Shown here one piece after another: positions 27,209 to 63,586 of a DNA stretch of 64,000 nucleotides. This DNA is from Haliotis rufescens (lineage: Eukaryota). How positions within the stretch are numbered: position 1 is the first letter of the stretch; every line of letters starts with the position of its first letter. The notes under the pieces were generated by a model, which searched no databases, had not been told where the DNA came from, and saw only the letters and a program-made list of their open reading frames with translations. The stretch is taken from assembly GCF_023055435.1 (NCBI RefSeq), contig NW_025964223.1, positions 27,900,001 to 27,964,000 on the forward strand, given 5' to 3'. The position numbers were made by a program, and so were the translations under genes.

Positions 27209-29708
27209 TTACCTGTCCTCGGACATACGAACTGGGGGGATGTTTAGAATCTCACGAAGGGGAGGTAATTCCGACCACCTCTGTGGAACAAGCATTGCGT
27301 CCAAGTTCACATGATTGGCAGGACCAGCAGTTTTAGAAGCATCATGCTGTGCTTCATCTCTGGATATCTGAGAAGGATCTCGGGTTCGGGTGGCCCATGT
27401 TGTGCTCGTGGTTCTGTCTGAGCAGAAACACACAATAATCCGAAATACTGCATGTTGGTTTGGGGTCTGACGCATCTCTGACGAACCACAGGGACGTTGC
27501 TCGTTTAAGAAATACAAACTGCAATGTACAAATTGTATCAATCACTGGACTTTGTCACTGTACGTGAATATAGATTTCGATCAACAGATATGTGCCGTAG
27601 ATGAAGGCCATTCTGGTCACTTTGTCGACTAGTCAGGACAAAGGACACTGAAAGTAACTCATCATAGCTGTCAACACATCTGTGAAGGTTCTAAGTTACC
27701 TTCGTCAGCTTTTTCTTTTTGACGCAGTAGAGAACAACCAAGAAGATTATCCCAAGGAAGCAAATTCCCACAACAGCAATCACAGCAATCGTACCGGGCT
27801 GCATACTTGAGTCTTAAAGTACAAAAGCTTCATGCATATGTGTACTAAATAGCTTCATAGTTACACAGGAGGCTTACCTAGATTGTGTGTGATCACTGCT
27901 CGAATAGGGAGATCCTTTCAATACATTCATTTATACATCTGGTTAGCGATAACTGTCCTCAATGACGTGCAACGCCCGTTACAAACTGTTGTGAATAAAT
28001 AATGGTCCAACGTTCTTCACTCTCTGAACTTGTCTCTGCCCAATTGTCATCGAAATAGAATCAAAATATAATTTCTGTTACATTTTGTGCAACCTTTAAA
28101 CATCTTGATTCACCGTTAACCCGTTTGGGGAGATAACTAACAAGGGCTATGCACATAAGCCAGGGAAGCAACTCGTGGCGTCATAGCTGCACCGAAATGG
28201 AATTAACCGATTATCAAAATTATGTTACAGTATGCACAAAATACACATTAAAGTAAATACCTCCTGGAGTGTTTCTTGATGCATAAGCTGGTGCTGAGGC
28301 CATGAGTGACCTAGATATCAACATGTAACGCGTTGTTGTTGGAGTTGCCTGTGTTGTCACGGTTGGACACGCATGCGCTCTCTTTGGTTGCGATACAGCC
28401 GATAAACCTAGAAACATTATCGGGACGAATCGGGGTTCGACCCACGATCAAAGGTTTCGGGCGTGCCCAAGGGACGCAACTCCTGCACAACGAATTGCTG
28501 TGCCTTAGACGACCGGGACATCCATGCTCCCACCAATATACATTGACTGTAAGAATGAGGGCATGTGGTTACGTACAGTGTTGACATCGTTCTTCCAATT
28601 CATAGCATTGTGGTATAATGTATTGACCACTGACCATTGCTTTTCGGCCTTTTGGCAATGGCTTTCTCTTTATGTTGTGGTCACAGGTGCCCCTGTCGCC
28701 TAAGTGGTTTGATTCCTATGACGGGGTCTTCAAATACAAGGTTCGACCTGATAATGGTTCCTGATTTGTCGGCACCATACCTGTGCTCATGGGTTTCTAT
28801 TGATATAAAGCTGACACGCCGTGATATAACGGAGATACTCCCCACTGAATCAGTTTCCCATATTTTCAGTATGGTGTTCTTGATGAGATTTACATTTATT
28901 AACTTTTCCTTTTCAATTCAACCCTACGTATCGTACCATAGGCCGACCACGACAACAGTTGAATAGTACCCCAGTTACAAACAGAGACATGTGCAGGGCG
29001 TTGAAAAGGTGATCAAAATGTGACACTGCTTGTGTCTATTACCAACTCACCAGGTATGCAGTAGTAGTTCATAAGCATGTAACTAGTTTGTGTCAAGTGA
29101 GTAAGGAAGTCACATGGCCACCCTGCAGTGACCCTGTCAACTCTAAGCATACAGTCAGTTCTTCCAGTACAGTTGGTGTAAAACCCCAGGCCTTTGCTTG
29201 TCCGTGCAATTCAAACTGACAGTCGTCTTTTGCGTGTGTGCAACACTTTGTGCGGTTCCTGTTTAAGTCTGTTGATTCGCTGGGGCAGTTGATAGATTTA
29301 TTTTTAGAGCCAGCATAGAAATCTTTAAGAGCGATTATCTCCCCTGGTTGGCACTCCGGTTACAGAAAATCAAAATCTGAGGACCCTGTCCCAAAACAGC
29401 CCGAAGATTGCTTTGGTGTCCATAGGAGTGGATCTGCAGGGACAGATAGCAAGGGGAAGTTATCACTAGATGTGTTAAATAAATGTGTAATTCGACAATG
29501 TATATTGCCAAAACGTGACCACAAGACAAAGGTCCTTGATGCCGTGTATACATGCAGCACAATTGTGAATACTGTACGGTTATTATATGGTTACATTGTA
29601 TCATCAAATGTTTCTCTTAATTACATCTCGTAGGAAGGACATTGTTAAATACTCACTTGTCCTTGGACTGATCCACATGAGCAGTAGAACCCGTATTGCG
29701 CTGACCAT
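27209..29708 (-). pseudogene. Pseudogene of the SUEL-like/mucin/TM receptor family; signal exon 29708-29657, Cys-rich exon 29433-29051, stalk remnant ~28390-28261, TM exon 27812-27700, tail exon from ~27417
   Basis: Signal exon MVSAIRVLLLMWISPRT, then ...SGCFGTG...FL*PEC...INCP...KCCTHAKDDC (frameshift near 29190) FYTNCTGRTDC...YMLMNYYCIP. TM exon reads TIAVIAVVGICFLGIIFLVVLYCVKKKK. There is an in-frame TAA at 29360-29362 and no recognisable CUB exon. Confidence 0.8.
28397..28532 (-). mobile_element. 5' part of tRNA-derived SINE (family D) inserted in the pseudogene
   Basis: Aligns by eye with 49670-49802 and with the reverse complement of 40201-40330. Confidence 0.7.

Positions 29709-31360: not shown

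Positions 31361-31361
<1 letters not shown>

Positions 31362-31425
<64 letters not shown>
31362..31425. repeat. (GT)n microsatellite
   Basis: Visible in the sequence. Confidence 0.97.
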
Positions 31426-31431
<6 letters not shown>

Positions 31432-31487
31432 TTCTGTTTACATTTATATATTGTTTGATAGGCATTACTTAGAAGTAGGCGGATGAC

Positions 31488-31662
31488 AAAGTGGACACAA
31501 TTAATGTATAGCAACTTCTTTAATTACTGTAAAGCGACGTTTGGGTATAGATCCTTATACCATTGTCAAGCAGGGCTTACTTAACAACGGTATAAGGATC
31601 TATATTGAAACGTCGCCTTTACAGTAACTAAAGAAGTTCCTAGCCATTAATTGTGTCTACTT
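31488..31662. repeat. ~175-bp near-perfect palindrome; each arm carries a mutated hammerhead-like core (probable Penelope-like terminal repeat)
   Basis: The arm AAAGTGGACACAATTAATG...TTGTCAAG is complementary to CTTAACAA...ATTAATTGTGTCTACTTT. The same element and its left flank recur at 41024-41190. Confidence 0.85.
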
Positions 31663-33601
31663 TGTACGCTTATATAGTTTATTTGTTGTGTTTACATATT
31701 GTTGTTGACAATCCAGGTTTTTATGAACTGAACATGAAAACGGGGTTCGGATACAATATCTATTTGTGTGATGGAAGTATGTGATAAATCTAGTTTTGAG
31801 GTAATGAAGTCCCGGTCTGGTGGTACCTCCACTTTACAGAAAAAGAATGTTGATGAGTGCGATATTTTCGAAGTGCAATAGGGATATTGGTTACAGCAAC
31901 ATAAGACATCATACACTCATTGTTCACATTCGAGGGTATCGTGATCACACGTTAGACGCGTGAATGGGGAGTTGGACAATAAACTGTTTGCTGTAAAGGG
32001 GGCAGCGGCACGCACATTTATATGAAAGCAAGGTACTCACCGTTTATCAACATTTAATCAGTTCAAATCACCTGGACGCCCTCTTCCGTCAACCACTACC
32101 GACACTGACAGAAGTACTATTGTAAAAATATTACTTTTCACGGTGATGCGGCCGTCAAATCGGCTGTTTCAATCAGAGGGGGTTTATTGCGATTTGATAC
32201 TTCTGGTCGACCAAATGAAAGTATTTTCCAAATTTATCTTAGAATAATCTTCATATTTGAGTCTTGCATTAGTTGTACAGACCCGTGTCAAATCCATGTA
32301 GCTGGGGTCATTTCATGACTACATCTAGGCGCCAATAAGACATCTAGAAAAGACATGTTTTACCATGCTGCATTAACCACATCAAAGAATTCCTGCCTTG
32401 CATCAGATATTATTTGGACGCAACATAGTTTAAGGTGCTGGGGAGTAAATCAGAAAATGTGAAATATTCGAGGACCAATCGTCGTTAATTCGCAGCTGCA
32501 CGTACATTGCCAAAACTCTTCACAATTACGGAATAGCAAATTGGAACTCTAATATGAGTCGTTGAGTGAGTAGATGTTGTAACAGTTGATTTTTATATAT
32601 AATATGAAATACAGATCCAACTATTTCTTTGATCTTCTGATCGGATGAATGGGGTGTCATTGTGATTCCTTAACCCAGTGCAAAAGTCATCATGATACTT
32701 CATGTTGTTTGAAATACATCCATTGTAACAACTCACACTGCACTTGATGCTATTAAAGGATAACTCGTCAGAAAGGTTAACTTTTAAAAACATGATTTAT
32801 TTGTAGCTCATTTTTATGTTACAAGGTCATTCAAAATTGAAACGCATCGGTTAACCAAGGAATCGGTTCGTACACAGTGTCGTGTCTAATCAGTAATTAA
32901 CTACACACATAAATAGTTAACCAGTTGTAATCAAACACACAGTTTTAGGTTTACATTCAGAAAAGACAAAACATTGGGTCATATACGTGGGAGCAGCAAT
33001 TAATAACTGGCCCTGTAATAAATGTCACTGCACTCACGATCCGGAACCGCCAGGGACAGATAAATACCACCCCCATTTGGCATGTACACAAGTCGCAAGT
33101 CCGGTGCACGTTCGGTGTAGTCAAGGCACTAGATATTGTACGACTGCTTCATTCATTTGCTGCCACTAACAGTTATCACTGCCTTCAACAACATGTACTG
33201 CCACTAACAGTTATCACTGCCTTCAACAACATGTACTGCCACATGAGAATGATCATGTTTTATCTCACTCTATTTTGGTTACAGATGCCTCATTATGTGT
33301 TTGCATTAATTTTGTCAGCCGATCACCTGAGCCTTAGACTTTTATATCCATATAATATATGTTATGAAAAGATTTGTGTTATAAGTCGAAATAAGTTCAT
33401 ATAAACGAGAAACATATTCCATCAAGTAATGACCATAGATAGGGTTGAACCGGAACATCTTTAGGCGGAAACCAGCACCAAACAACAGTTCACCTGACAC
33501 GACTAAGTCCATATGTACACGTAGCGTTGTCACACGACAAATGCTTGCAGGCATGTTGCCTTCATGATTGTCTTTTTCTTTGTCGTCACTGCAGAGTTAC
33601 A

Positions 33602-36600
33602 CTATTTCCCTCGAGGTTCGAGATGCCAAACGTCTGTCTTTACTGCGCCATTTTTGGACAACTGCGTCGCTGCTTTGTTAACAGTGTATGCTGAACGGAC
33701 AGTGTGCCACATTTTAGGTACTGTGTCCACAGAAGGAGCCGCCGGAGAGTCATGTGAAGGGTCATCATCCAGCGGCTCAAGGCGCCTGGGGCGACGGACT
33801 AGTGCAGTTGTTGCAGGGGCTACTGGGGGTACTTCTGTACTCATCAGGGGAATAACCTCCCCCTGCAACACATGACAATAATCTCGGAATAAGCGACACA
33901 TTAAGTAAACAAAAGGATGCTTATGTCTTTTACAAAATGCCAAAGGCGTCTCTAAATGTTTGTTGAAACACTGTTGAAAAGTACCATATACCGTTCATAA
34001 ATATTCATGAAACGCAGTATGGTCCCAAATAGTCTAGGAAATACCTGTGTTTTTCTGAACTTCCTCTTAATAACGTATCCAGCTATGACAGCAAGAACCA
34101 ATACGACCAGTACTACTGCCACTGGTATCTGCCAAGAATCTGAAGAAGAAATGTAGGATCGTTTTGAATGTACATGTCATTATTGTTTTTCAATAAGACG
34201 AAAATAATAGAATATTACCAAACATGAGTACCGTTAGTCAGGGTCGACCTTTTTATCTCAGGGACTCCTGTATTTGAATTTAATATTTCTGTATAACCCG
34301 GAGATTGCATATCGTTAGGGTGTTTTGTTTATATATCTGGGGATAGTCCTGTAGGTCCAGGAGTGCTTGTACCCTGGGGTGGTTCTGTGGGGGTATTTGA
34401 TCCTGTAGACCCAGGAGTGCTTGTACCCTGGGGTGGTTCTGTGGGGGTATTTGATCCTGTAGGTCCAGGAGTGCTTGTACCCTGGGGTGGTTCTGTGGGG
34501 GTATTTGATCCTGTAGGTCCAGGAGTGCTTGTACCCTGGGGTGGTTCTGTGGGGGTATTTGATCCTGTAGGTCCAGGAGTGCTTGTACCCTGGGATGGTT
34601 CTGCTGATGTCCCTGTGGATCTGGGGTCGACGGTGGTTACTCGTTTATCGTTTTCACAGACAGAGTTAACATTATTAGAGTAGATGGAACCAGCAACGTC
34701 TTCGTCATAGGAACCAGAGCGAGTAGTGCCAGCTGTGCATGCTTCACCAGACGAAGCTTCTTCGGAATTGCAACTGATATTGATCACGTCACCGTTTGAA
34801 CCTTGAATACAATAAGAAGAGAATTAATTAAATAATTAATATTAGAGATCTATGACGAATCATTGTGTACTTCACAGGTATACATGGGTATTTCATGTAT
34901 AATAGCTATTTCTAAATATAGGAGGAAGATATTCTAGGGAGGGTGGTGTAAAAAAATGTTTTGGGGTTGGTAGGTTTTAATGGAGAAAATCTGTTCCAGA
35001 CAATAATGAAAAAAACCCCACCAAAATATTGCCCCAAGTGATACAACAAAATTACAGTTGACTGAAGTAGAGAAATATATTACATGCCTTGACGCTATGA
35101 CTGAAATCACCTTTGATTTGTACCCATAACCATGTTCCCTTAGTCATGTTAGATAGTGTTATCTGGACGGAGGAATTCTCGCTGGTGTAGGTGACTCCAG
35201 TGAAGTTATTCCCGGGACATAGCAATGTCTGAGAGTTGTTCCCATCAGTTATTTCCAGATTGGTGTGTGATCCGTTGGAATAGAAATGGATGCTTTCTAT
35301 GATGATTGATGTGTCACAGGGTGCTGCTACTCTACATGAAACATCGTTCCTGGAGGTCGTGTTCTCTTCGCTTTTAATAAATACTGTCGTATGACTTGCT
35401 GTCTGGTTAGACGTAGGATCCAGTATATACGTTTCTGAAAAACAGGAACATAATACGAGTCGGAAATTAGTAAAAATAATCAATGTAGTTATTAACATGT
35501 GATTTCGTCTTGATGAAGTATGTTTATGTCTGTACTACTACACATTCCATCCAAACTTCAGGAAATTGCGAGTGCTAAGCTACTTTTGTTATTCCTTATT
35601 TGGCACATGCATACTGCACACGCTTCATGTAAGGTGTTAGCATCACCATATGGCTCCTAATAATCGTGGATTATTCGTGGCACAGTCAGCGAACTCCAGC
35701 AATGACAGGTGTATCAGCAATGACAGACTAAATAATGAAACAAAGTAAAATTTACTTTACGAGTAATCTTACCCAGGACACAGGAGAAATCCATGACCAT
35801 GTATGTCGTGAAGGCCATGTAACCAGCGTCCACATACGTCATGTTTACTCCCTGGCGGGTCACTGGCCTCATGCACCTTGACTTCCCTACACACGCAGAT
35901 AGGTATTCAGAGAGAGATATTCCCTTATAAAGAGACTTGTAGTCGTTTGCATCGTACGTGCAACACTTCCCACGATCATAATCAGCTCCAAATGCTGCCA
36001 GGGCACACCCAAGATTTGCTTTCTTTGCAAATGCGTAAATATGTTCGATTACAATAACTTTAGGACTATCGCATGAAGGTGTAAAGAAATCCGATTCATC
36101 TGACCCATCACCATAGCAACCCACTAATTCATTTGTGAAGGATTCTGAAAATTAAAAAAAATGAAACAATATATTTTACTTTAGTTATCACTGAATGAGC
36201 GTGTTTAAGGTATATTACACGATCTGGGTAAAACGAAATACGTATAAATTACCCAAACCCGATTGATATGAGAATATATCAGTTTTGCACATGTTATCAA
36301 TAATACTGATCAGTTTGTCAACTAAACTAAACATACAATACTGTTACCGCCTATAGTTGTGGAGTAATACACTGGACCAATAGACACTTCCACAGAGTAC
36401 ATAAACAGCAACATACTCTGTCAAGTAAATAAGTTTGGCAGTGGAATAGAGTTGGTCCACAGCATTCTATAGCTATACTGGACGTACGAGGCAGTATAAT
36501 GGAGCAGGTGGTCAGGTTAGGTGACCCGATGATGTGAGTCGATGCACGCAACATCAATCATTGGATGATCATTACTGAGTGCGGTGTTAAACGCATAGCG

Positions 36601-38046
36601 TCTGGTTTAACGTCGCTTTGAACAGTATTTCGGTAATACCAATGAGGGTCAGCATGATGACGAGAGGTAGCTGAACATTTCTGAGCCTATCTGTGATGGA
36701 CTGTGTTGATAGAGTTGGTTGCTAATTATGTCATATCATATTATATATATTATTCTTTATAATTCCATCCGAGGTCTGCCAACGACACTGATAAATGTCT
36801 GGATCCAACTGGTATGACGACCTCCTCTTGGTGGTGTAAAACGTCATCCACAGCTGAAATTACGTCATGATTATTTGCATATTGCTTGTCAGATATTCAT
36901 TTCTTCAAGCCTTGATATTCTCCCGCAGTTGGAAAAGCAGCTTAACAGGATATTTGCCATTAATGATTTGACCTTTAGGGAGGTAGGATTCCTTTGAGAG
37001 CCCAGAAAAAAAGAAGCCATAACTTTGTCAGCTGATGGAACAGACTTTTCGTGAGTCGTCTGTCATCCATAATCATATCACGTATTTTAGCAACATTTTC
37101 GTTAATGGTGGCAGGTGAATGTCTTCCCATCTTCCCGACGCAAGGGAGTTAACTGACTTTTATAGTCCAGTTTCCACCCTTGCCGAACTAGGCTGCAATT
37201 ATGGAGTTATATTTTGGCTGGACTAACGAGTCGATGCATAGTCCAGTCGAAATCGCGCAACGAAATCCACATCCGGTTGGTAAACTGCCGTGCAGATTTC
37301 GGTCGACTGCAGGATTTGGAAAGCATGTGCTTCGCCAACTGAGCGTCGTCAGATATTTTCAAAATATTCTCATGTTTTTAATCAAGGTGGTCACGTGATT
37401 TGATGCACTTTGCTAAGTAAGGCCCGTTTTATTACAAAATAAATCTTGATTATGTATCGGATTGATCGCCATTTCGATTGAAACAAAAGCAAGTAATATG
37501 GGAGGTGGAATCTAACTGGTCAATAGGAGGGACATATAAGGGACATAACTCGTAATAGCCACTGATGACGCTACTATCGAACCCAGATATTCCGGCCTAG
37601 TTCGGCAAGTGTGGAAACTGGACTTTTCTAGTCAGTCAACTCCCTTGCCTCGGGAAGATGATGTCTTCCTGGCCCTTCACTTCCCATCTTCCCTTCTCAG
37701 TTTTGTTCAACATAGAATACCTAATCCTTTTTATGACTGCAGAGATATTCAGTCTGGTGGTGTATTTGGTTCAAATGCAGCATGTTAGTTGCGTAATTAT
37801 TGTACTTAGACGTGCACACTGATGATGAAATACTATATACCATTCGTATTCAGGCTCATGACTTTTCAGCCACTCTGCATATATCCCTCGAGCTCGCAAC
37901 ATCCTGCAGTTACTGTATTTACACAAGATCAAGGAATTATGCTTGTATTCGTGACAAATTCTGAGGAACGGTATTATACAGGCCTATGTATACTTACCCT
38001 GAAAGCAGATGAACATGGCCAGAAATGTGGCGGTACGTCCGTTCAT
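33602..38046 (-). CDS. Uncharacterised SUEL-like + CUB-like + mucin-stalk type-I membrane protein (paralogue 2) with an in-frame TAA before the TM exon; exons 38046-37998, 36144-35773, 35434-35111, 34801-34232, 34139-34045, 33862-33602
   Basis: Signal exon MNGRTATFLAMFICFQ (donor CAGG|GTAAGT). Cys-rich exon GCYG...SC...GC...KCC...ACVGKSRC...YMVMDFSC. A beta-rich CUB-like exon ending GTWLWVQIK, then a PTS repeat stalk, TM IPVAVVLVVLVLAVIAGYVI-KRKFRK and an 86-aa last exon. All phases are compatible; TAA at 34331-34329. Confidence 0.75.
34348..34605 (-). repeat. Exonic 54-bp tandem repeat (18-aa STPGPTGSNTPTEPPQGT), ~4.5 copies
   Basis: Visible in the DNA and in ORF 34329-34787. Confidence 0.93.
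37128..37660. mobile_element. Non-autonomous DNA transposon (MITE) with ~65-bp TIRs and a 9-bp TSD (Mutator-like)
   Basis: TIRs CATCTTCCCGACGCAAGGGAGTTAACTGAC... and ...GTCAGTCAACTCCCTTGCCTCGGGAAGATG. ATGTCTTCC occurs at 37119-37127 and 37661-37669. Confidence 0.85.
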
Positions 38047-48477: not shown

Positions 48478-49388
48478 TGTATAACCGATAGATTGGTCTT
48501 ATGCAGAGTTACGGAGTCTTGCGGAACATATGCGTCAAGGTAACTTTCTACACATGCTATGTAAGTATTTTTCAATTTATTTCAATTGAACGTTTATTTG
48601 GAATATTGACAATATGTACGAGTGAGAGTGACTGAGCGAGTGAGAGTGAAGGAAAGAAGGAAGAAGCATGGACGACTCAAATTGGACGCATAGAATAGAG
48701 TCCTCCCCTTATGCCCTTGTAGACGCTACCATATCACCAACAGATACAAGTAACCATTAGCTTAGGGCTGAAAAAGAATGAATTTACATGATTATTCAAT
48801 CAGAAATAAATCTTGTAAAAATCATATGAAACAAACATTTCTGCTCAATTTTAGATGTGCCATGTGTTCGCTCAAACATGATAATTGTTACTCCATTTCT
48901 ATGAATAATACATAGCTAGTCACTTGAATATGTTTTTATCACACCTTCGATAAGCTATCAGGCGTGGGTGAGATGAAGCAGCTGCTGTGATGTATTTCAA
49001 CTGCTGCGTTAGGCCTGCAAGCAAGCAATCTGCATGTGTGTGAAGGTGAGAAACACAATATAATGAAATTCATTAATATCTGATACTAGTCTACTCTTTC
49101 AAGAATAATTATATAGCAATATACATCGGGGAAAAGTGGAGGTTAGCTTATACGAGCATTTAACACGTTTATAAGTCACCGATATCTTACACTATGAACC
49201 GGGCTATACGGTTATAAATAGATAAGTTGGATGTCAACAAACTGACACGTATATTCATGTTCATATCTACTCTTTCTGTTAAAAAATCTATGCTTTTTCA
49301 GCCTTATTATAACTTATATTGACATCAGAGTATGCAATGAATTAATTATACTTTATCTTGTCTACAGGCGCCATTATCAACCCGGGAC

Positions 49389-52300
49389 ATGTCTCCATTA
49401 TTCTTCATTTTGTCATTATTACAATGTAAGTGAGATATTTTCCATTTTGTTATCCATATTGAGCCGACACAACCCATTAAACTGCAACATGAGAACTTGA
49501 TCCATAAAATCTGAGTGAGCGAGTGAGTTGGGTTTTTCACGTCGCTTTTAACAGTATTCCAGTTATATCGTGGCGTGTCAGCTTAATGTGGGAGGAAAGC
49601 CCGAAGTGATGTGATGCAGGTCTCAGACGTTTACCACTTCGGTGAAACCCACGAGCACGGGTATGGTGCTAACAAACCTAGAAAGATAATCGGGGCGAAC
49701 CGGGATTCAAACCCACAATCATAGGTTTCTGACGTGCCCAAGAGACGCAACTCTGCACATCGAATCGCGACGCCTTAGACGACTGGGCCACCCGTGTCCC
49801 CCGTGTTCCCCGTTAGCATCAATATCACGTCATCTGAACCGAATCGAAAAACTACAGTGGATCATAGCATGAACACCGATCCACGCCATCAGGTACAATT
49901 GTACTCCTTGATCTGGACATGTTTTACGCGTTTTGGTTTCAGTAAATACTGTATAAGAACGAGTTATTAGGGGTCTTTTCGCCCACAGAAAGGGCCGGAT
50001 TAAACTATTTTGATGTAATAATTACTCGCTAATATATAAGTATTGGTGCAAAGTGACAAAACGCTTGTCATAATCAGTAGAAAGTTCTGCTACAAGCAGA
50101 GTCCAGTGTACGATTCCCACAATGTCATAAGCATTTGTATGGAACACAGTCAGCAATCACCATCGTCTTTGTCTTACAGGTTTATATCTTCTACACGGAC
50201 TAAACCATACAGCCTGCTACAATTCCGAGTTAATCATTGATTCCCCTCTCTGTGGAAATAGTGGGAATCTTGCACCGAAGAAGTTCCTGCTTGGGCAATT
50301 GTCCCCAAATAGCACATGTCGCACAAGACTCAGCGGACAACGGGACTATCATATTGTCCGTGACTGTTGCAAATTCCACGGCGGGGATACCGTCATCGAG
50401 GAGGTGTGTATTCCAGGACAGAAAATGCGGTTGTCAAGTCCCCTGTCTCACATGGCAAGGTACTGTAGTCGTGGACATCGCTGTGATTCCGGGAAGCGGT
50501 TGACGAGCAAGGAACTACATTCAGGAGACTATGTGTCTCTGGAATATGACTGTGTACATGGCAAGTAGAAATTAAGTAATATTTCTTATGAAACGTACGT
50601 ATCTATGGTTCGCGACAAATTGAAAGAAAATGTACTGTGAAAATTGAACTGTGCGTCGTCGCTCTTTTACATATAAATGTGTTTGTCTTTGTTAGGAACA
50701 TTATTTTTCACTACACATAATAACAAGTGTTATAACATTAACAGATACATTATCTCATCGATAAAAAACACCAGAGCCTGATAATAACCAGTTCCGATTA
50801 TCCGCCGAACCACAATCCATTGGGCGTAAAATAACTGAAAATTATATGAATAGATCACGGAAAATCAGCGATGACACCAAGTGTTAGCGAATAGAGAAAG
50901 CATGCCCTGCCCTTCCGGTAGCACCGCCACTCACAATGAGTTTCATAACAAAGTAAGTGTTTGTTGCGTGACGTCACACAGCAGTACTCCCGTGAACAAA
51001 CAAGACAATCAAGTAATCCATGGACCAGTGGTACGATAGCACATCCACTGATATTGTGAAGCCAAAATCTACGTTAATTTTAAATCTGCTGCACGCAAAC
51101 AGATATTCTGCTGCTTCTTAAGAAAGAAAAACCGTTGAAGAAATATGTTTGGTTTGCATGGGACAGCAGCTCCTGCGCTGAACATCCGTGATTTAAATGG
51201 TTAGCCTGACCACAGCCATGGCATAGAGCAGTCCTGTGCATTTGTGTCACTGTCGGTTGTTTGAAAGTGCAGGTGTGGGCAATTGAACTGTGAGAATATT
51301 TCCTTGGCGCCGGACTACTGCATGTTTCATTAACAACCTTTTCATCACTATTTATTTCATTCTTTCTTCTTTGTCAGTAAAAGAAGAAATCCATTTTAAT
51401 TCCGATGAGGTGCTTAATGGAAGAAAGGTTTACCTGATAAGCGATCAGAAGGATGGAAGTGTCCGAGATGCTAAATGTGCTGCCTACAAAACAAATCCCC
51501 GGTCATCCATCATCGTCACTCTCGTAGACAACATTGTTTCCTCGGGAGCGTGTACAGTCTCCTTCGCTAGTTCAATGTATGGGAGTACAAATATTAATTG
51601 TGCCAAAACAGAGATTGTGAATGGTTGCAATAACGTGCTGTATAGCAGCAACACCAGCAGGGTAGATATTAATCTGACCATGACAGTTATTGCTGACGGC
51701 AGTGATCGCCAGTTTTTGTGGATGGTTGTTACAGGTAGGCATGATTAATTTTATTGTTATGAATTCTCAATATGAAATAGTTTTTATTCACATGTAAACC
51801 AAGTGTTATTGTTTATGTTGATACGGTTTACCGTAAGTTTTACATTTAGGTTTGACTACCAAAACCTGACAAATCTTGTTTTTTTCTGCTCAACTACATT
51901 CATGAAATATAAGTCAGAGGCATGATCCCTCACCTGCGTCTTTTGTAGCTTCTGATGGAGGTAACCTGACAGTGGCTTGTGGGACGAAGATACCACCGGA
52001 TGATTACACAACAGCCTCAGCAACACAGTCCACAAGAAGCCGCCTGACGACTCAAAAGAGTTCACCTAATTACACGACTACGTCTTACTCAAAATCGACA
52101 TCAGATTATCCTGCTACTATCAGGGCAACAAATAGCAGGGGGATTTCAAAATCATCGACTTTGTCCACCTCCGCTATAGCTACTGGGTTAACGATCCCAC
52201 ATTCAATCTCAGGGTCTGGAGGAAGCACGAAAATACATTTGAGCAAAACAAACTCCATGTCTCATTCATCTACTGGCTTACAATTGACCATGTCTTCCTC

Positions 52301-55300
52301 ACCTTTACTCACAACGTTTGGTAGAATACAGGCTTCAAGTACAACATCAACCTCATTATCTACAAACATGCCATCTTCACTTCCACCAACGTCTTCGCAA
52401 TCACATTCCACAACAGAAACATTTTCCCCTTCCCTGACACATTCGACCACAGGAGGTCGACTACAGTCTTCCAGACACACATCATACTCGACTCGTCCCA
52501 CTCAAGGGCAATCTTTATCTTCGTTTAACGCGTTATCGTCTTCAAACGTTACACTATTTCGTCTCATAAAAACAACAAAACCATCTTTACATCCACTGAC
52601 AGTGTCGATCGCGGGAGGCTCTGAAACTGCCCATACATCGACAACGTCAACGAGTGCATCAACCTCAACAAAATCTTGGCAAAGATTGTCGTCAACTACA
52701 GTGACATCCAAGCCACCTGTTGATGAAACAACACGGGACACAAGTAGGTAATATACATAACATATTATGGGAAAATGAAACAAAGATTGGACTGCCAGTG
52801 TGCTTGCTGTTATGCCCTTGTTTAACATCCCAGAGAATGAATGAAGAATGATTTTGACATTCGTGGGAAGACCGTACATACTCTATCGAAAAAAATAATT
52901 ATAATGATTGTATAGTTTTTGGAATGACAGATTCGTACTGACTATAAAACGTACCATTACAATTTACCCAAAACACTTATTGCATGTATTATAATTAACT
53001 TTGTATCATTCCCCTATCGCAAAGATAATGTGCAAGGTTTGTATTGCTGAATCATACTGAATAGTATCATCAAACATAAGAACATACATAGTAAATCATT
53101 TGCCGTTTCCTCGACAACGTCAACGAGTGGAAGATTAAGGTTTACAAACACCACATCATTCTCACCAGTAGACACAGAAGGAAAAGGCTCATCTTCTCCA
53201 ACTGTGTCAACGATTGGAAGGATGCAGTCATCCAAAGCCACATCCGTTTCCTCGGAAACCGGGCAGGAAACATCCTCATCCACAACAACGCCTATGCCAT
53301 CAACACAGGGTGGAATACAGCACTCGACAACCACATCTTCATCTTCCATCACTGACAACGGCAAGCCCTCCAACATCTCTACTCACACTTCAGCAACCCA
53401 ACATATGCTAACAGCTTTAATGTTCGGTGCATCAACCTCAACAAAATCTTGGCAAAGATTGTCGTCAACTACAGTGACATCCAAGCCACCACCTGTTGAT
53501 GAAACAACACGGGACACAAGTAAGTAATATACATAACCTATTATGGGAAAATGAAACAAAGATTGGATTGCCAGTGTGTTTGCTATTATGCCCTTGTTTA
53601 ACATCCAAGAGAATGAATGAAAAATGATTTTGACATTTTTTGGAAGACCGTACATACTGTATCGCATAAATAACTATAATAATTGTATAGTTTTTGGAAT
53701 GACAGATTCGTACTGACTATACAACGTACCATTGCACAACACATGTATTTCGTCTTCAGTGTCATTGATATATGTTTACCCAAAACACTTATTGCATGTA
53801 TTATAATTAACTGTGTATCATTTCCCTATCGCAAAGATAATGTGCAAGGTATATATTGCTGAATTATACTGAATAGTATCACCAATCATCTGCAAACGTT
53901 ACACTATTTCGTCTCATAAAAACAACAAAACCATCTTTACATCCACTGACAGTGTCGATCGCGGGAGGCTCTGAAACTGCCCATACATTGACAACGTCAA
54001 CGAGTGGAAGATTAAGGTTTACAAACATCACATCATTCTCACCAGTAGACACAGAAGGAAAAGGCTCATCTTCCACAACTGTGTCAACGATTGGAAGGAT
54101 GCAGTCCTCCAAAGCCACATCCGTTTCCTCGGAAACCGGGCAGGAAACATCCTCATCCACAACAACGCCTATGCCATCAACACAGGGTGGAATACAGCAC
54201 TCGACAACCACATCTTCATCTTCCATCACTGACAACGGCAAGCCCTCCAACATCTCTACTCACACTTCAGCAACCCAACATATGCTAACAGCTTTAATGT
54301 TCGGTGCATCAACCTCAACAAAATCTTGGCAAAGATTGTCGTCAACTACAGTGACATCCAAGCCACCTGTTGATGAAACAACACGGGACACAAGTAGGTA
54401 ATATACATAACCTATTATGGGAAATGAAACAAAGTTTGGTCTGCCAGTGTGTTTGCTATTATGCCCTTGTTTAACATCCAGGAGAATGAATGAAGAATGA
54501 TTTTGACATTTGTGGGAAGACCGTACATATTGTATCGAAAAAAATAATTATAATGATTGTATAGTTTTTGGAATGACAGATTCGTACTGACTATAAAACG
54601 TACCATTACCATTTACCCAAAACACTTATGCATGTATTATAATTAACTTTGTATCATCCCCCTATCGCAAAGATAATGTGCAAGGTTTGTATTGCTGAAT
54701 CATACTGAATAGTATCATCAAACATAAGAACATACATAGTAAATCATTTGCCGTTTCCTCGACAACGTCAACGAGTGGAAGATTAAGGTTTACAAACACC
54801 ACATCATTCTCACCAGTAGACACAGAAGGAAAAGGCTCATCTTCTCCAACTGTGTCAACGATTGGAAGGATGCAGTCATCCAAAGCCACATCCGTTTCCT
54901 CGGAAACCGGGCAGGAAACATCCTCATCCACAACAACGCCTATGCCATCAACACAGGGTGGAATACAGCACTCGACAACCACATCTTCATCTTCCATCAC
55001 TGACAACGGCAAGCCCTCCAACATCTCTACTCACACTTTAGCAACCCAACATATGCTAACAGCTTTAATGTTCGGTGCATCAACCTCAACAAAATCTTGG
55101 CAAAGATTGTCGTCAACTACAGTGACATCCAAGCCACCACCTGTTGATGAAACAACACGGGACACAAGTAAGTAATATACATAACCTATTATGGGAAAAT
55201 GAAACAAAGATTGGATTGCCAGTGTGTTTGCTATTATGCCCTTGTTTAACATCCCAGAGAATGAATGAAGAATGATTTTGACATTTTTGGAAGACCGTAC

Positions 55301-58300
55301 ATACTGTATCGCATAAATAACTATAATAATTGTATAGTTTTTGGAATGACAGATTCGTACTGACTATACAACGTACCATTGCACAACACATGTATTTCGT
55401 CTTCAGTGTCATTAATATATGTTTACCCAAAACACTTATTGCATGTATTATAATTAACTGTGTATCATTTCCCTATCGCAAAGATAATGTGCAAGGTATA
55501 TATTGCTGAATTATACTGAATAGTATCACCAATCGTCTGCAAACGTTACACTATTTCGTCTCATAAAAACAACAAAACCATCTTTACATCCACTGACAGT
55601 GTCGATCGCGGGAGGCTCTGAAACTGCCCATACATCGACAACGTCAACGAGTGGAAGATTAAGGTTTACAATTATCACATCATTCTCACCAGTAGACACA
55701 GAAGGAAAAGGTTCATCTTCCACAACTGTGTCAACGATTGGAAGGATGCAGTCCTCCAAAGCCACATCCGTTTCCTCGGAAACCGGGCAGGAAACATCCT
55801 CATCCACAACAACGCCTATGCCATCAACACAGGGTGGAATACAGCACTCGACAACCACATCTTCATCTTCCATCACTGACAACGGTAAGCCCTCCAACAT
55901 CTCTACTCACACTTCAGCAACCCAACATATGCTAACAGCTTTAATGTTCGGTGCATCAACCTCAACAAAATCTTGGCAAAGATTGTCGTCAACTACAGTG
56001 ACATCCAAGCCACCACCTGTCGATGAAACAACACGGGACACAAGTAAGTAATATACATAACCTATAATGGGAAAATGAAACAAAGATTGGACTGCCAGTG
56101 TGTTTGCTATTATGCCCTTGTTTAACATCCAAGAGAATGAATGAAGAATGATTTTGACATTTGTGGAAAGACCGTACATACTGTATCGCATAAATAACTA
56201 TAATAATTGTATAGTTTTTGGAATGACAGATTCGTACTGACCATACAACGTACCATTGCACAACACATGTATTTCGTCTTCAGTGTCATTAATATATGTT
56301 TACCCAAAACACTTATTGCATGTATTATAACTAACTGTGTATCATTTCCCTATCGCAAAGATAATGTGCAAGGTATATATTGCTGAATTATACTGAATAG
56401 TATCACCAATCGTCTGCAAACGTTACACCATTTCGTCTCATAAAAACAACAAAACCATCTTTACATCCACTGACAGTGTCGATCGCGGGAGGCTCTGAAA
56501 CTGCCCATACACCGACAACGTCAACGAGTGGGAGGTTAAGGTTTACAAACATCACATCATTCTCACCAGTAGACACAGAAGGAAAAGGTTCATCTTCCAC
56601 AACTGTGTCAACGATTGGAAGGATGCAGTCCTCCAAAGCCACATCCGTTTCCTCGGAAACCGGGCAGGAAACATCCTCATCCACAACAACGCCTATGCCA
56701 TCAACACAGGGTGGAATACAGCACTCGACAACCACATCTTCATCTTCCATCACTGACAACGGCAAGCCCTCCAACATCTCTACTCACACTTCAGCAACCC
56801 AACATATGCTAACAGCTTTAATGTTCGGTGCATCAACCTCAACAAAATCTTGGCAAAGATTGTCGTCAACTACAGTGACATCCAAGCCACCACCTGTTGA
56901 TGAAACAACACGGGACACAAGTAAGTAATATACATAACCTATTATGGGAAAATGATTATGCCCTTGTTTAACATCCAAGAGAATGAATGAAGAATGATTT
57001 TGACATTTTTTGGAAGACCGTACATACTGTATCGCATAAATAACTATAATAATTGTATAGTTTTTGGAATGACAGATTCGTACTGACCATACAACGTACC
57101 ATTGCACAACACATGTATTTCGTCTTCAGTGTCATTAATATATGTTTACCCAAAACACTTATTGCATGTATTATAACTAACTGTGTATCATTTCCCTATC
57201 GCAAAGATAATGTGCAAGGTATATATTGCTGAATTATACTGAATAGTATCACCAATCGTCTGCAAACGTTACACCATTTCGTCTCATAAAAACAACAAAA
57301 CCATCTTTACATCCACTGACAGTGTCGATCGCGGGAGGCTCTAAAACTGCCCATACACCGACAACGTCAACGAGTGGGAGGTTAAGGTTTACAAACATCA
57401 CATCATTCTCACCAGTAGACACAGAAGGAAAAGGCTCATCTTCCACAACTGTGTCAACGATTGGAAGGATGCAGTCATCCAAAGCCACATCCGTTTCCTC
57501 GGAAACCGGGCAGGAAACATCCTCATCCACAACAACGCCTATGCCATCAACACAGGGTGGAATACAGCACTCGACAACCACATCTTCATCTTCCATCACT
57601 GACAACGGCAAGCCCTCCAACATCTCTACTCACACTTCAGCAACCCAACATATGCTAACAGCTTTAATGTTCGGTGCATCAACCTCAACAAAATCTTGGC
57701 AAAGATTGTCGTCAACTACAGTGACATCCAAGCCACCACCTGTTGATGAAACAACACGGGACACAAGTAAGTAATATACATAACCTATTATGGGAAAATG
57801 AAACAAAGATTGGATTGCCAGTGTGTTTGCTATTATGCCCTTGTTTAACATCCCAGAGAATGAATGAAGAATGATTTTGACATTTGTGGAAAGACCGTAC
57901 ATACTGTATCGCATAAATAACTATAATAATTGTATAGTTTTTGGAATGACAGATTCGTACTGACCATACAACGTACCATTGCACAACACATGTATTTCGT
58001 CTTCAGTGTCATTGATATATGTTTACCCAAAACACTTATTGCATGTATTATAACTAACTGTGTATCATTTCCCTATCGCAAAGATAATGTGCAAGGTATA
58101 TATTGCTGAATTATACTGAATAGTATCACCAATCGTCTGCAAACGTTACACTATTTCGTCTCATAAAAACAACAAAACCATCTTTACATCCACTGACAGT
58201 GTCGATCGCGGGAGGCTCTGGAACTGCCCATACATCGACAACGTCAACGAGTGGGAGGTTAAGGTTTACAAACATCACATCATTCTCACCAGTAGACACA

Positions 58301-61300
58301 GAAGGAAAAGGCTCATCTTCCACAACTATGTCAACGATTGGAAGGATGCAGTCCTCCAAAGCCACATCCGTTTCCTCGGAAACCGGGCAGGAAACATCCT
58401 CATCCACAACAACGCCTATGCCATCGACACAGGGTGGAATACAGCACTCGACAACCACATCTTCATCTTCCATCACTGACAACGGCAAGCCCTCCAACAT
58501 CTCTGCTCACACTTCAGCAACCCAACATATGCTAACAGCTTTAATGTTCGGTGCATCAACCTCAACAAAATCTTGGCAAAGATTGTCGTCAACTACAGTG
58601 ACATCCAAGCCACCACCTGTTGATGAAACAACACGGGACACAAGTAAGTAATATACATAACATATTATGGGAAAATGAAACAAAGATTGGTCTGCCAGTG
58701 TGCTTGCTATTATGCCCTTGTTTAACATCCAAGAGAATGAATGAAGAATAATTTTGACATTTGTGGGAAGACCGTACATATTGTATCGAAAAAAATGATT
58801 ATAATGATTGTATAGTTTTTTGGATGACAGATTCGTACTGACTATGAAACGTACCATTACCATTTACCCAAAACACTTATTGCATGTATTATAATTAACT
58901 TTGTATCATTCCCCTATCGCAAAGATAATGTGCAAGGTATATATTGCTGAATCATACTGAATAGTATCATCAAACATAAGAACATACATAGTAAATCATT
59001 TGCCGTTTCCTCGACAACGTCAACGAGTGGAAGATTAAGGTTTACAAACATCACATCATTCTCACCAGTAGACACAGAAGGAAAAGGTTCATCTTCCACA
59101 ACTGTGTCAACGATTGGAAGGATGCAGTCCTCCAAAGCCACATCCGTTTCCTCGGAAACCGGGCAGGAAACATCCTCATCCACAACAACGCCTATGCCAT
59201 CAACACAGGGTGGAATACAGCACTCGACAACCACATCTTCATCTTCCATCACTGACAACGGCAAGCCCTCCAACATCTCTACTCACACTTCAGCAACCCA
59301 ACATATGCTAACAGCTTTAATGTTCGGTGCATCAACCTCAACAAAATCTTGGCAAAGATTGTCGTCAACTACAGTGAAATCCAGTCAACCACCTGTTGAT
59401 GAAACAACACGGGACACAAGTAAGTAATATACATAACATATTATGGGAAAATGAAACAAAGATTGGTCTGCCAGTGTGCTTGCTATTATGCCCTTGTTTA
59501 ACATCCAAGAGAATGAATGAAGAATAATTTTGACATTTGTGGGAAGACCGTACATATTGTATCGAAAAAAATGATTATAATGATTGTATAGTTTTTTGGA
59601 TGACAGATTCGTACTGACTATGAAACGTACCATTACCATTTACCCAAAACACTTATTGCATGTATCATAATTAACTTTGTATCATTCCCCTATCGCAAAG
59701 ATAATGTGCAAGGTATATATTGCTGAATCATACTGAATAGTATCATCAAACATAAGAACATACATAGTAAATCATTTGCCGTTTCCTCGACAACGTCAAC
59801 GAGTGGAAGATTAAGGTTTACAAACATCACATCATTCTCACCAGTAGACACAGAAGGAAAAGGTTCATCTTCCACAACTGTGTCAACGATTGGAAGGATG
59901 CAGTCCTCCAAAGCCACATCCGTTTCCTCGGAAACCGGGCAGGAAACATCCTCATCCACAACAACGCCTATGCCATCAACACAGGGTGGAATACAGCACT
60001 CGACAACCACATCTTCATCTTCCATCACTGACAACGGCAAGCCCTCCAACATCTCTACTCACACTTCAGCAACCCAACATATGCTAACAGCTTTAATGTT
60101 CGGTGCATCAACCTCAACAAAATCTTGGCAAAGATTGTCGTCAACTACAGTGAAATCCAGTCAACCACCTGTTGATGAAACAACACGGGACACAAGTAAG
60201 TAATATACATAACCTATTATGGGAAAATGAAACAAAGATTGGACTGCCAGTGTGTTTGCTATTATGCCCTTGTTTAACATCCAAGAGAATGAATGAAGAA
60301 TGATTTTGACATTTGTGGAAAGACCGTACATATTGTATCGAATAAAATAATTATGATGATTGTATAGTTTTTGGAATGACAGATTCGTACTGACTATAAA
60401 ACGTAACATTACCATTAACCCAAAACACTTATTGCATGTATTATAATTAACTTTGTATCATTCCCCTATCGCAAAGATAATGTGCAAGGTTTGTATTGCT
60501 TAATCATACTGAATAGTATCATCAAACATAAGAACATACATAGTGAATTATTTGCCGTTTCCTTCCAGGAAAATCAGACAACACTGATGACAAGGTTGCC
60601 TTTAGTAAGTATACTTATAAAGAATATTGAATGTTTACGGCAGTTGTGTTTCATGTGTTGACGGGGATGAATATAGTAAACTACATGGGAGCTAAACGTC
60701 TAAGAGAATTCCTTCCGTTCCAGTACTGGAGGTGATCACAAGCTTGACGGGAGCAGCCCTCCTCCTTCTGATGGTGATCACTACAGCAATGTGCTTGTGC
60801 TACAACAAAAGGTATTATATATCTTGTGAGAGAGTATTTATTGCCCATTGTAAGATCGTGGATCCTCAATCAATAAGAGCTGCAATATTAATTTACGAAT
60901 TGTGTGTAGGTCCATTTCCTTGTACGAGAGTAACAAGTGATTTTAACAGAATTATAAAATATGTTTCTTGTACATTGAATGCGATTTTAATAAGGTTTAC
61001 AAACATATACGTTAATGCGATACATTATCCTACTTACATCTCTGATAACCATGCTGAATCACAGCGTACCAAGCTGAGAGTCGTGCAGCCATAGAATAGC
61101 AATTCTGTCTGACATGTTAGTTGCAGCGTTAAAGTGACCGTATCATGAAAACAGCAATAGATTTTTCTCACACCATTATGTAGGCAGTATAATGTACAAT
61201 ACGATTGCCTAGGAACAAAGTGTAAAAACATCAAGTTACCGCTGTTGCGCGTAATTAAAAATACGATTTGTGTGGTCTCTATTTGTAAGAACCCAAACTA

Positions 61301-63586
61301 TGGAATAATTGCCCTTACAAAAGCAAGTATAAAGTGTCAAAACTAACCAAAGCAGCACTGCGACATGTTGGCCATTTGTCGCAATGTCGCGTTGACACAT
61401 TGTCGCGCTTTGAATCATATAGTTTTTAGTTAACAAAAGGGCGACAATGCGACAATGTGACATTTTTTCAAGGTCAAAATATGTCGCATTGTCGCTCTTT
61501 GGTAAAATAAAAATGATATTATTCAAAGCGCGACAACTCGAAAAATGGCCAAAATGTCGCGTTGTCGCATTGTCGCTCTTTTGTTAATTTTGACACTTTT
61601 TACTTGTTTATGTAAGGGCAACAATGCGACAACGTGATAGTGTCCCTTCTAGGATTCCATACAAAAGGAGGCGTGGTTTACTTAGCCTGCAGGCTGATTG
61701 GGTATTACCACCAGCCGGGTACAGAATATACCTATTCGTTTCATTAGTTGTTGGGAGGCCTGTGTATATATACTCTTCCAAAAAAAAAGAAACTATACAT
61801 GCATAAATTTGATAACACTGGACCTGATCGCTTTTGCATGGCAGAATTTGTTTTCTTAAATAATCGTTAAATTTCATTAAATTTTCGAGTAAACATGCAG
61901 ATTGCCGAAACGTAATGTTGTGACGTCGCAACGGAGCAATTTGCCAAAACGCAGCTGCAATGCCATATACCGGCATCATGCAAATTTCTGAACTGTCGTG
62001 ACAATACCTGTCATCAGCCTCACAAGTACCCAGACTACGTCGAATACCGCTCGCCAGACTTGTCCCCTATTGAACATCTACGGGACGTGCTGGATCGTTG
62101 GGTCCGTCAACGTCAACCACCGCCACAGACACTTCAGGAACTGTTTGTGGCGCTTGAGCAGGATTGGCAGAACATCCCCCGCAGTGTTATTCGGACTTCG
62201 CTGCCAAGAGGTGATAGCAGCTCGAGGAGGCCAAAATCGTTACTTTCCACCTACCCCGGGTGTTTTTGTGCCTGTATTTGTTACATGCATATTGTACAAT
62301 AATTAACCTATAAGTACCACTTGTTACACTATTTATGAAATCTAAACTCGAAAAATAAACCCAGTTGCAATCCTGATGTATAGTTTCTTTTTTGAAGAGT
62401 ATAATAGAAAAATTGAATGGATTTCACATATGTCAAGAGTATGGCTAGTGGTGGCGTGTCAAGTAACCTTGGTTTAACGTGAATTATAATTTTCACGTAA
62501 AATATTTTCCTTTTCAATTTTAGGGGCGCGGGTTCCAAAACAAAACAAATGAGATGAGTACCGTAACGCGAAGAATAAACGCATTAAAGAAATAGCATGT
62601 TTCGCACATCGTTTTCTCACCGAATATTGACAGTTTGTGACATTATGTCCGGTTAATCGTTAGACCGTAAGTACAGTCAAGACTCGTTAAACCGACACTT
62701 GTTAATCCGACAATCGGCTTTATCCGACACTAATGATGGGAACCGATTAAATCAGTACTATTTAGACCCGTTAATCCGACAGTGTCGCACTCCGACTCCG
62801 ACACACTTAATTTGCAACGAATTACCGAAATCTCTCATATAACAACGGCTCCAGAGATAAACTTGCTTAACAATAAACAATTAATGCTTTAAATAAAGAA
62901 AACAGTATTAATCACATGCTTGGATTACCTCAATCGCATTGAAATCAGATACAAGTTCTCGCTGTCGCCGAGGATATCCCATTACAGCTTTTCGCGAACT
63001 ATGACCTGCCAATGAAATGACTAACAGGAAGTCAACGTTATTAGCCACTTAGAAAGCAGCTTTCCTAAGCTTTGCGGTTCCAGTATCAAACTTGCGACTG
63101 CCATTCCAGACTATGCTTTTTAAAGTATTTTAAATAAGTCATACAGTCCGTTTAATAGTCGAGCTTTAGAGGTTGTATGATTAGAAAACATATTCCACTA
63201 ACAATGTAACATAACAATATGAACATTTCATTTTTATTTTTTATTACGTGTTTGTATCGTTATCTATCGTGTAGTTGTTCGATTTTCTATCACGAACGTT
63301 GATACTACTTAATTTCGTTTATCCGACATACTCGTTTATCCGACATAATCGTATGCATCAACCATGTCGGATAAACGGGACTTGACTGTATAAGAATCAG
63401 TTAGACAGGTCAACTCATTTTGAGTTTAATATCAATGCCTTGTACTGTTGCAGGATGCACGAGCTGCAACGGAATTCTCGAAAAAGGAAGAAACTGTCAG
63501 GAACCAACGTATCTGCATTGGAATTAAAGAGGAACTCTGTTGTATCATTAGAATCTGGATATGATTCCATTTCAGCGTTGCGCTGA
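49389..63586 (+). CDS. Uncharacterised SUEL-like + CUB-like + mucin-stalk type-I membrane protein (paralogue 1, intact; ~608 aa without array exons); exons 49389-49425, 50180-50560, 51378-51734, 51949-52743, [optional array exons], 60569-60604, 60724-60811, 63454-63586
   Basis: Signal MSPLFFILSLLQCLYLLHG. Cys-rich exon ACY...LC...TC...DCC...YCSRGHRC...DYVSLEYDC. CUB-like exon ending QFLWMVVT, then a Ser/Thr stalk, TM VITSLTGAALLLLMVITTAMCLCY-NKR and tail ...SGYDSISALR*. Exons sum to 1827 nt in frame; AATAAA at 63661. Confidence 0.82.
49513..49802 (-). mobile_element. tRNA(Leu/Ser-like)-derived SINE (family D)
   Basis: Minus-strand head GGGACACGGGTGGCCCAGTCGTCTAAGGCG...GTGGGTTTGAATCCC and an (ACTC)n tail; three copies in the window. 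Confidence 0.75.
52540..60562 (+). repeat. Tandem array of mucin-exon 3' part plus following intron; 10 donor copies, units of ~775 bp (A) or ~846-877 bp (B)
   Basis: Donors ACAA|GTA(A/G)GT follow 52743, 53519, 54393, 55167, 56043, 56920, 57766, 58643, 59419 and 60195. The units carry near-identical S/T-rich ORFs. Confidence 0.95.
61355..61640. repeat. Unclassified element built of direct and inverted TGTCGCATTGTCGC motifs
   Basis: Multiple TGTCGC(A/G)TTGTCGC and GCGACAATGCGACA copies. Confidence 0.55.
61990..62245 (+). mobile_element. Tc1 transposase C-terminal relic
   Basis: SPDLSPIEHLRDVLDR...TLQELFVALEQDWQNIP...RCQEVIAARGGQNRY. Confidence 0.85.
62674..63388. mobile_element. TA-flanked MITE (Tc1/mariner-pogo type) in the last intron of paralogue 1
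   Basis: TA|CAGTCAAGACTCGTTAAACCGACA ... TGTCGGATAAACGGGACTTGACTG|TA. Confidence 0.85.

Follow-up and report, generated by a model that had tools for sequence, protein, structure and literature searches.

SUEL-type domains, also called rhamnose-binding lectin (RBL) domains (PF02140), are found in SUL-I, CSL3 and latrophilin and carry four canonical cysteine pairs (1-3, 2-8, 4-7 and 5-6). RBLs contact rhamnose with a Glu directly behind the first cysteine (Cys1+1), with the Tyr in the YGR motif and with two residues of the DPC loop, Gly and Lys; the motifs read YGR and DPCxGTxKYL (PMC3269628). For latrophilin-1, PMC2430599 reports that the exchanges E42A, E42R, K120R and K120A abolish binding, and according to its Table 1 even conservative changes at this Glu or Lys cut binding about 80-fold or abolish it. 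The same source treats the loss of the sugar residues from receptor-attached SUEL domains as a known phenomenon and proposes that such domains bind proteins; the SUEL domains of EVA-1/EVA1C (C21orf63), a single-pass receptor, lack the sugar residues and are presumed to be protein-binding. Here we describe three related genes, A, B (a pseudogene) and C, which lie between positions 27,209 and 63,586 of a 64,000 nucleotide stretch of the Haliotis rufescens genome (contig NW_025964223.1; G000:C445:27,900,001-27,964,000; hereafter the window). They belong to a real and apparently undescribed molluscan family of receptors with a SUEL-type domain, a CUB-type domain and a transmembrane helix, and on balance we think it probable that these are protein-binding recognition or adhesion receptors, similar to the sugar-blind SUELs of EVA-1 and latrophilin without being members of those families.

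The two extracellular domains are not recognised by Pfam, which gave no SUEL or CUB match above cut-off in single exons or in 31 full proteins (0/31); the best E-values below cut-off among the 31 proteins were 0.52 for SUEL and 0.002 for CUB. Gene A was modelled with AlphaFold2 (AF2) on a 29-row alignment, and its domain 1 was also folded alone. The preliminary description had regarded domain 1 as a divergent SUEL fold, which is what the model, with a predicted local distance difference test score of 94, indicates. In a comparison with 48,161 chains by the structure search VIA the top eight matches are SUEL-type (Z 7.8-4.9), and unrelated chains begin at 4.1. SUL-I (5h4s; Z 7.8, root mean square deviation (rmsd) 3.3, 84 residues aligned) and CSL3 (2zx0; 7.8) lead the list, the lectin domains of latrophilins reach 7.0-7.5 (latrophilin-1 7.5), and ranks 6-8 (Z 6.7-4.9) are held by P113, the RIPR complex and rice beta-galactosidase, which we take to be SUEL-type as well. 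The predicted alpha/beta fold is in this way shared with SUL-I, CSL3 and latrophilin at Z 7.0-7.8. The 14 rows listed among the Foldseek ranks 1-15 comprise the same SUEL set; judged from their titles, they include solved complexes of SUEL domains bound to teneurin and TOL-1. The ESM Atlas assigned domain 1 to SUEL_Lectin (0.90). The whole 455-aa model gave only poor beta-rich matches in Foldseek (Cry toxins and others; template modelling score about 0.1, rmsd >12), which were set aside as noise. A profile search of the PDB sequences found only a match of the transmembrane region to CD166, and no match with alignment A2.

Domain 2 had been described as CUB-like, and here too the structure search agrees. 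Residues 148-251 of gene A match CUB2 of C1s (Z 10.1, rmsd 2.7, 102 aligned), VIA ranks 1-22 can all be taken as proteins that contain CUB domains, with a spermadhesin in third place (Z 9.8), and CUB leads in the Atlas with 0.85-0.87. The beta-sandwich is thus of the kind known from C1s/MASP CUB2, spermadhesin, neuropilin, NETO and Kremen. The CUB elements N-x-x-Y-P and C...C are visible in many family members; the family differs from other CUB domains by an additional cysteine pair, which sits on the next exon. Calcium-binding CUBs carry C-x-Y-D and S-D at their ligand positions. At the corresponding places the family has, judged by eye, C-x-Q (19/21) and Asn (16/21). Taken together, domain 1 is predicted to have a SUEL fold and domain 2 a CUB fold.

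The profile alignment program hhalign connects the family with less derived SUELs of the same genome (P 85%, E 5.9e-6) over a 16-residue insertion in front of a CC motif. Ten SUEL matches are found by Pfam in this genome. Six single-exon loci were examined, and at five of them a CUB-like exon follows within 10 kb, as detected by the hidden Markov model (HMM) of domain 2; one of these exons passes the Pfam CUB cut-off. SUEL exons without the CC insertion that are followed by CUB-like exons are located at L091 (G000:C423:1,920,001-1,930,000), L093 and L094-L096. The pairing at these loci supports the fold assignments independently. It follows that the combination of SUEL and CUB exons is more widespread in abalone, as a broader SUEL+CUB superfamily, and that the family of genes A, B and C is a derived branch of it with an insertion of about 16 residues.

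The eight canonical SUEL cysteine positions as well as the C-x-G-x-x-x-C and Y-x4-Y-x-C strands are recognisable in typical family members, which differ from SUEL/RBL domains by the insertion of about 16 residues, by two more cysteines and by the absence of both the Glu at Cys1+1 and the Lys of loop 2. The family-typical scaffold of domain 1 has ten cysteines, and exactly ten are present in 25 of 35 aligned domains; gene A has eight and gene C nine, the positions C85 and C120 being altered together in A, C and their kin. The cysteine pattern given in the preliminary description has two matches in the window (A and C) and none in 100 triplet-shuffled windows; since one cysteine pair has been lost from A and likewise from C, it omits D-C85 and C120. 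As C85 and C120 co-vary and would fit the canonical 4-7 pair, C63-C77 is likely the new bond, according to the covariation and the hhalign alignment.

The absence of the sugar-binding motifs YGR and DPC had also been claimed. Literal YGR and DPC each occur in one of the 35 aligned domains, both off the motif positions, and KYL in none. The key residues are missing as well. Cys1+1 is Tyr in 28 domains, otherwise His, Phe or Arg, and never Glu (0/35); the position of the loop-2 Lys is occupied by Asn in 21, otherwise by Asp, Thr or other residues, and never by Lys (0/35). Because Glu and Lys are missing in all 35 domains, canonical binding of rhamnose or galactose is very probably not a property of this family, as judged from the alignment.

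Gene A (38,046-33,602, minus strand) consists of six coding exons for the signal, domain 1, domain 2, stalk, transmembrane helix and tail. Exon 1 (37,998-38,046) encodes the signal peptide and ends in a phase-1 donor; it is supported by splicing in runs X1 and X2 and by RefSeq LOC124153106. Exon 2 (35,773-36,144; 372 nt, phase 1-1) encodes the divergent SUEL domain with eight cysteines (C85/C120 pair lost) and rests on contigs, the AF2 model, Foldseek and VIA; it matches Haliotis rufescens LOC124153106, automatically named 'uncharacterized protein', letter by letter. The CUB-fold domain is encoded by exon 3 (35,111-35,434; 324 nt, phase 1-1), which is likewise covered by contigs. Exon 4 (34,373-34,801; sequence, RefSeq isoforms) starts with a cysteine-bearing cap strand, continues as the Ser/Thr/Pro stalk and contains five in-frame phase-1 donors, after 34,589, 34,535, 34,481, 34,427 and 34,373. 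These donors are provided by a 54-nt coding tandem repeat (34,347-34,603, 4.8 copies, 18 aa per unit), one in each of five units, and an in-frame TAA lies downstream at 34,329-34,331. Exon 5 (34,045-34,139; sequence, RefSeq, AF2 model) encodes the transmembrane helix and basic stop-transfer residues, and the last coding exon (33,602-33,862; contigs, RefSeq, AF2 model) a disordered cytoplasmic tail. In the full AF2 model two domains are predicted with confidence, the stalk and the tail are disordered, and a single helix spans 342-368; a homodimer prediction for the ectodomain scored 0.02. X1 and X2 each provide contigs in which exons 1-2-3-4 are joined, and X9 provides the join of exons 2-3-4. 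The RNA nature of these three runs is a guess, and their joins coincide with the predicted splice sites; a contig of the DNA-like run X15 reads through the introns. Four RefSeq isoforms (455, 491, 491 and 509 aa) differ in steps of 18 aa, and the stalk has 38-40% Ser+Thr over 37-91 aa.

Gene C (49,034-63,586, plus strand) has the same exon order. Its 5' coding exons (49,034-49,425, composed of 49,034-49,045 and 49,368-49,425; sequence, RefSeq P0060-P0062) encode the signal peptide. The domain-1 exon (50,180-50,560, SUEL-type, nine cysteines, GC donor at its end) and the CUB-type exon (51,378-51,734) are defined by profile matches and an X1 contig, and the first stalk exon (51,949-52,743; 265 codons, 45% Ser+Thr) by the X1 contig and the sequence. 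According to sequence and RefSeq, there follow nine near-identical phase-1/phase-1 stalk exons of 348-351 nt (53,169-60,195), a juxtamembrane mini-exon (60,569-60,604) with a transmembrane exon (60,724-60,811), and the last exon (63,454-63,586) with a short basic cytoplasmic tail and the C-terminus SGYDSISALR. The nine exons lie in repeat units of 774-877 bp, some with an alternative upstream acceptor, and any subset of them preserves the reading frame. Exons 2-3-4 are joined in a contig of run X1 over the GC-AG intron 50,561-51,377, and no such contig was found in the other three of the four runs examined; the relatives on contig C2 have GT at this position. The protein matches RefSeq models with the automatic low-complexity name 'serine-rich adhesin for platelets-like'. 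At least 17 RefSeq isoforms exist, three of which have 1,648-1,794 aa, and the stalk reaches about 1,400 residues with 46% Ser+Thr. The ITIM-like (immunoreceptor tyrosine-based inhibitory motif) SGYDSI of the tail is absent from the H. asinina orthologue and was therefore treated as chance. The variation in stalk length of genes A and C may reflect either alternative splicing or allelic repeat number, and some RefSeq models are not simple exon choices.

Three paralogues of low identity but common exon order, as first described, are indeed present. In both A and C, phase-1 junctions connect the exons for signal, domain 1, domain 2 and stalk, and 18 of 110 aligned domain-1 residues are identical between the two genes. 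The family itself is much larger than these three. The genome of H. rufescens contains at least 32 domain-1 exons, 13 of them at C445:27.89-28.13 Mb, 13 at C2:44.02-44.20 Mb and six scattered. The C2 array (G000:C2:44,021,090-44,199,790) is young and consists of 13 kin of gene C that share about 83-91% identity in domain 1; a stop is present in one copy, and one is inverted.

A phmmer search of 1.84 billion representatives resulted in 32 matches; apart from the query itself and a spurious repeat protein, these are 30 relatives. Of the 31 non-self matches 21 were identified or looked up (20 looked up, one from a profile search), 17 with a species name and four unnamed. All 17 named relatives are from gastropods or bivalves; they represent 13 species, with protobranchs, oysters, scallops and unionids among the lineages. 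P0011 (4,275 aa) was dropped since its match is confined to a repeat stretch, and a profile search with alignment A1 yielded four proteins only, candidates being crowded out. The SUEL-CUB module is repeated two or three times in the bivalve proteins P0006, P0008 and P0009, and some family members lack the CUB domain. A transmembrane helix is present in 18 of 30 family proteins checked; the tails are not conserved, two of the 18 contain an ITIM-like hexamer, and there is no shared signalling motif. A tree of 57 domains displays lineage-specific expansions with an unresolved base; gene C falls together with the C2 cluster and a pair of copies from C445 (99/99), gene A with its downstream neighbours (97/86), and for several paralogues there are clear one-to-one orthologues among the abalones. 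No named gene with this architecture had been recognised initially, and none that is characterised was found: the RefSeq names are automatic, and a few bivalve members bear the UniProt auto-labels 'CUB domain-containing' or 'SUEL-type lectin domain-containing'. No description of a molluscan SUEL-CUB-transmembrane family was found in the literature, most subscription journals and all supplements lying outside the search, and no papers were found for six LOC ids.

These proteins would be type-I membrane proteins, in which a SUEL-fold tip and a CUB-fold second domain are held on a Ser/Thr-rich stalk, and would serve as cell-surface recognition or adhesion receptors or co-receptors that bind proteins and not rhamnose or galactose. 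The inserted loop, with C63-C77 as its additional disulfide, may form a binding face specific for each paralogue together with the two loops of the former sugar site. The stalk is probably O-glycosylated, judging by its composition, and would set the reach of the head above the cell coat, which could be tuned by the number of exons or repeats. As the cytoplasmic tails are unconserved, signalling would proceed through partners. The family evolves by birth and death in tandem arrays next to C-type lectin genes, and because of this a role in the recognition of self, microbes or surfaces is our leading guess. We consider it rather doubtful that the family represents pan-molluscan self/non-self receptors with dozens of tandem paralogues per genome, which bind protein ligands via a remodelled SUEL pocket, diversify their loops and tune the reach of their stalks by splicing.

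The described systems differ from this family in several respects. EVA-1 shares the single pass and a SUEL domain without sugar residues, but has two SUELs and no CUB, whereas members of the abalone family carry a single SUEL, a single CUB and a mucin stalk, and their genes occur in dozens of tandem copies. In contrast to latrophilin and PKD1-like proteins, P0001 and P0062 have a single helix and a short tail, and no GAIN/GPS match was found by Pfam for P0001. The Biomphalaria GRC/PTC2 proteins are, according to PMC7494358, clustered divergent single-pass proteins proposed to recognise non-self; by description they resemble the family as clustered, divergent molluscan single-pass proteins, but their alleles are hyperdiverse whereas the abalone orthologues are well conserved. 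No lectin, SUEL or CUB is mentioned in the main text of that paper.

A number of observations weigh against the idea of protein-binding receptors. No Foldseek match of domain 1 reaches an E-value of 0.001 or better, and by the scale of VIA itself a Z of 7-8 is middling. The structural model is that of gene A; gene C was assigned by profile match (domain-1 HMM E 4e-15, domain-2 HMM E 1e-3). The head of gene C shares 98.9% identity with its counterpart in H. cracherodii and 74.6% with that in H. asinina and is thus not hypervariable. The RefSeq models X3 of gene A and X16 of gene C resemble mapping or allele artefacts, and the stalk-length isoforms are putative, as the contigs break within the repeats. 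The conserved aromatic residues Y27 (28/35), W113 (19/35) and Y131 (32/35) could serve a different glycan. In favour of the idea, amino-acid change among the 12 intact C2 paralogues is concentrated in the two loops equivalent to the sugar site, where the proportion of nonsynonymous differences (pN) is 0.178 versus 0.053; random pairs of windows attained this 96 times in 20,000. Against it, the region was chosen after the alignment had been viewed, the synonymous proportion (pS) is raised in the same loops (0.257 versus 0.111), and omega, at 0.86 versus 0.45, does not exceed 1.

No positive selection could be demonstrated in the C2 clade, and omega = 1 is not rejected in the site loops. The mean ratio of nonsynonymous to synonymous substitution rates (dN/dS) is 0.52 for domain 1 (12 copies, the stop-bearing one excluded) and 0.44 for domain 2 (13 copies), and dN exceeds dS in 3 of the 66 domain-1 pairs and in 2 of the 78 domain-2 pairs. 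The sequence variation in the C2 loops would suit either a variable binding face or a relaxation of constraint.

Domain 1 might also still be a lectin, whose pocket was rebuilt for another glycan of algal, microbial or host origin; the family would then comprise glycan pattern-recognition receptors. The SUEL fold is retained, stacking on sugars would be possible for a conserved Tyr and Trp close to the site, the loops equivalent to the site differ between paralogues, the cluster is interleaved with eight C-type lectin exons, and PMC2430599 leaves room for unknown glycans. We nevertheless regard this explanation as unlikely, since the Glu or Lys for which that source reports such severe effects of even conservative changes is kept in none of the 35 domains, and no conserved acidic pair substitutes at the site.

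That the proteins are mainly membrane mucins of an epithelial or mucus coat, with the SUEL-CUB head as a structural cap or cross-linker, appears improbable. They share with membrane-tethered mucins the long Ser/Thr/Pro tandem-repeat stalk, judged by the composition of genes A and C; that of gene C arose from amplified exons, and the tails without a shared signalling motif would suit such a function. However, the stalks are short in most members (about 40-90 aa in A), the bivalve proteins P0006, P0008 and P0009 multiply the SUEL-CUB module instead, and it is the head and not the stalk which is conserved across the 13 species. A function as developmental guidance or gamete-surface co-receptors is very improbable: EVA-1 is indeed a single-pass co-receptor for Slit with a SUEL lacking the sugar residues (PMC2430599), a spermadhesin ranks third among the CUB matches and several paralogues have one-to-one abalone orthologues, but a lineage-specific tandem expansion with pseudogenes (B; 1/13 on C2) is less typical of conserved guidance receptors, and there is one SUEL plus a CUB instead of two SUELs.

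Gene B (29,708-27,209, minus strand) is a broken copy that kept the signal, domain-1, partial stalk, transmembrane and tail exons. Exon 1 (29,657-29,708), the signal peptide, is placed by sequence and a weak alignment to the N-terminus of P0025, its H. asinina orthologue. The domain-1 exon (29,051-29,433; sequence, tblastn) contains an in-frame TAA stop and a frameshift. A remnant of the stalk exon with a Cys and then a Thr-rich run (28,260-28,400, boundaries approximate) lies in the open reading frame (ORF) 28,220-28,447; the transmembrane exon (27,700-27,812) has an acceptor inferred from phase, and the probable last exon (27,209-27,417) is placed by sequence, its frame being uncertain. The lack of a CUB-like exon noticed at the outset is real, as neither tblastn with P0025 nor the domain-2 HMM found a CUB remnant between the exons. 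P0025 has the CUB exon, is open through domain 1 and into domain 2, and is 78% and 71% identical to domain 1 of gene B in two pieces. A high-copy repeat at about 28.4-28.8 kb marks the site of the loss, and a repeat-linked deletion is plausible. Against the domain-1 exon, run X15, which carries another organism label, has a 1-nt insertion and a 4-nt deletion at 29,192 and 29,291, so that gene B looks broken in that organism as well, by partly different lesions. No spliced gene B contigs are present among the contig pieces listed, a result that does not argue for the gene being silent.

A secreted C-type lectin gene with an EPN motif (39,920-41,820, minus strand; Pfam Lectin_C E 2.9e-10) lies between genes A and C and does not belong to the family. 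Five of the eight C-type lectin exons which are interleaved with or adjoin the SUEL-CUB genes are in the window, mostly with EPN and all on the minus strand (3,573-3,788; 9,814-10,029; 15,593-15,808; 22,569-22,784; 39,923-40,144); three further copies are found at G000:C445:27.865-27.876 Mb, and one upstream copy has a stop. Minisatellites of 58 nt are located inside two downstream paralogues (L016:5,010-6,900 and L017:5,155-6,420), and the RefSeq model P0037 has a false C-terminus drawn from a 58-nt minisatellite array. The window also contains a satellite array at 17,344-20,374 (period 43 nt, 70.5 copies, 98% match) and further arrays at 981-2,321 (21 nt), 42,293-42,877 (45 nt) and 22,799-23,221 (74 nt). 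High-copy dispersed repeats and inverted repeats resembling miniature inverted-repeat transposable elements occur at 28,350-28,850, 31,480-31,670, 37,130-37,660, 49,535-49,800 and 61,300-61,620. Decayed ORFs at 47,560-48,090 (minus) and 61,860-62,250 (plus) presumably resemble Tc1/mariner transposase.

The mechanism put forward here is not new, as receptors with sugar-blind SUEL domains have been described before, and so have CUB receptors. Domain-based surveys of immune and adhesion genes in molluscs would miss the family, given that none of its 31 proteins reaches the Pfam cut-offs. An InterPro survey of Aplysia lists three SUEL genes only (PMC9334734). With the folds and a likely binding face assigned, more than 30 'uncharacterized' abalone genes and their relatives in oyster, scallop and freshwater mussel would become testable receptor candidates for disease resistance, settlement or cell adhesion in farmed species.

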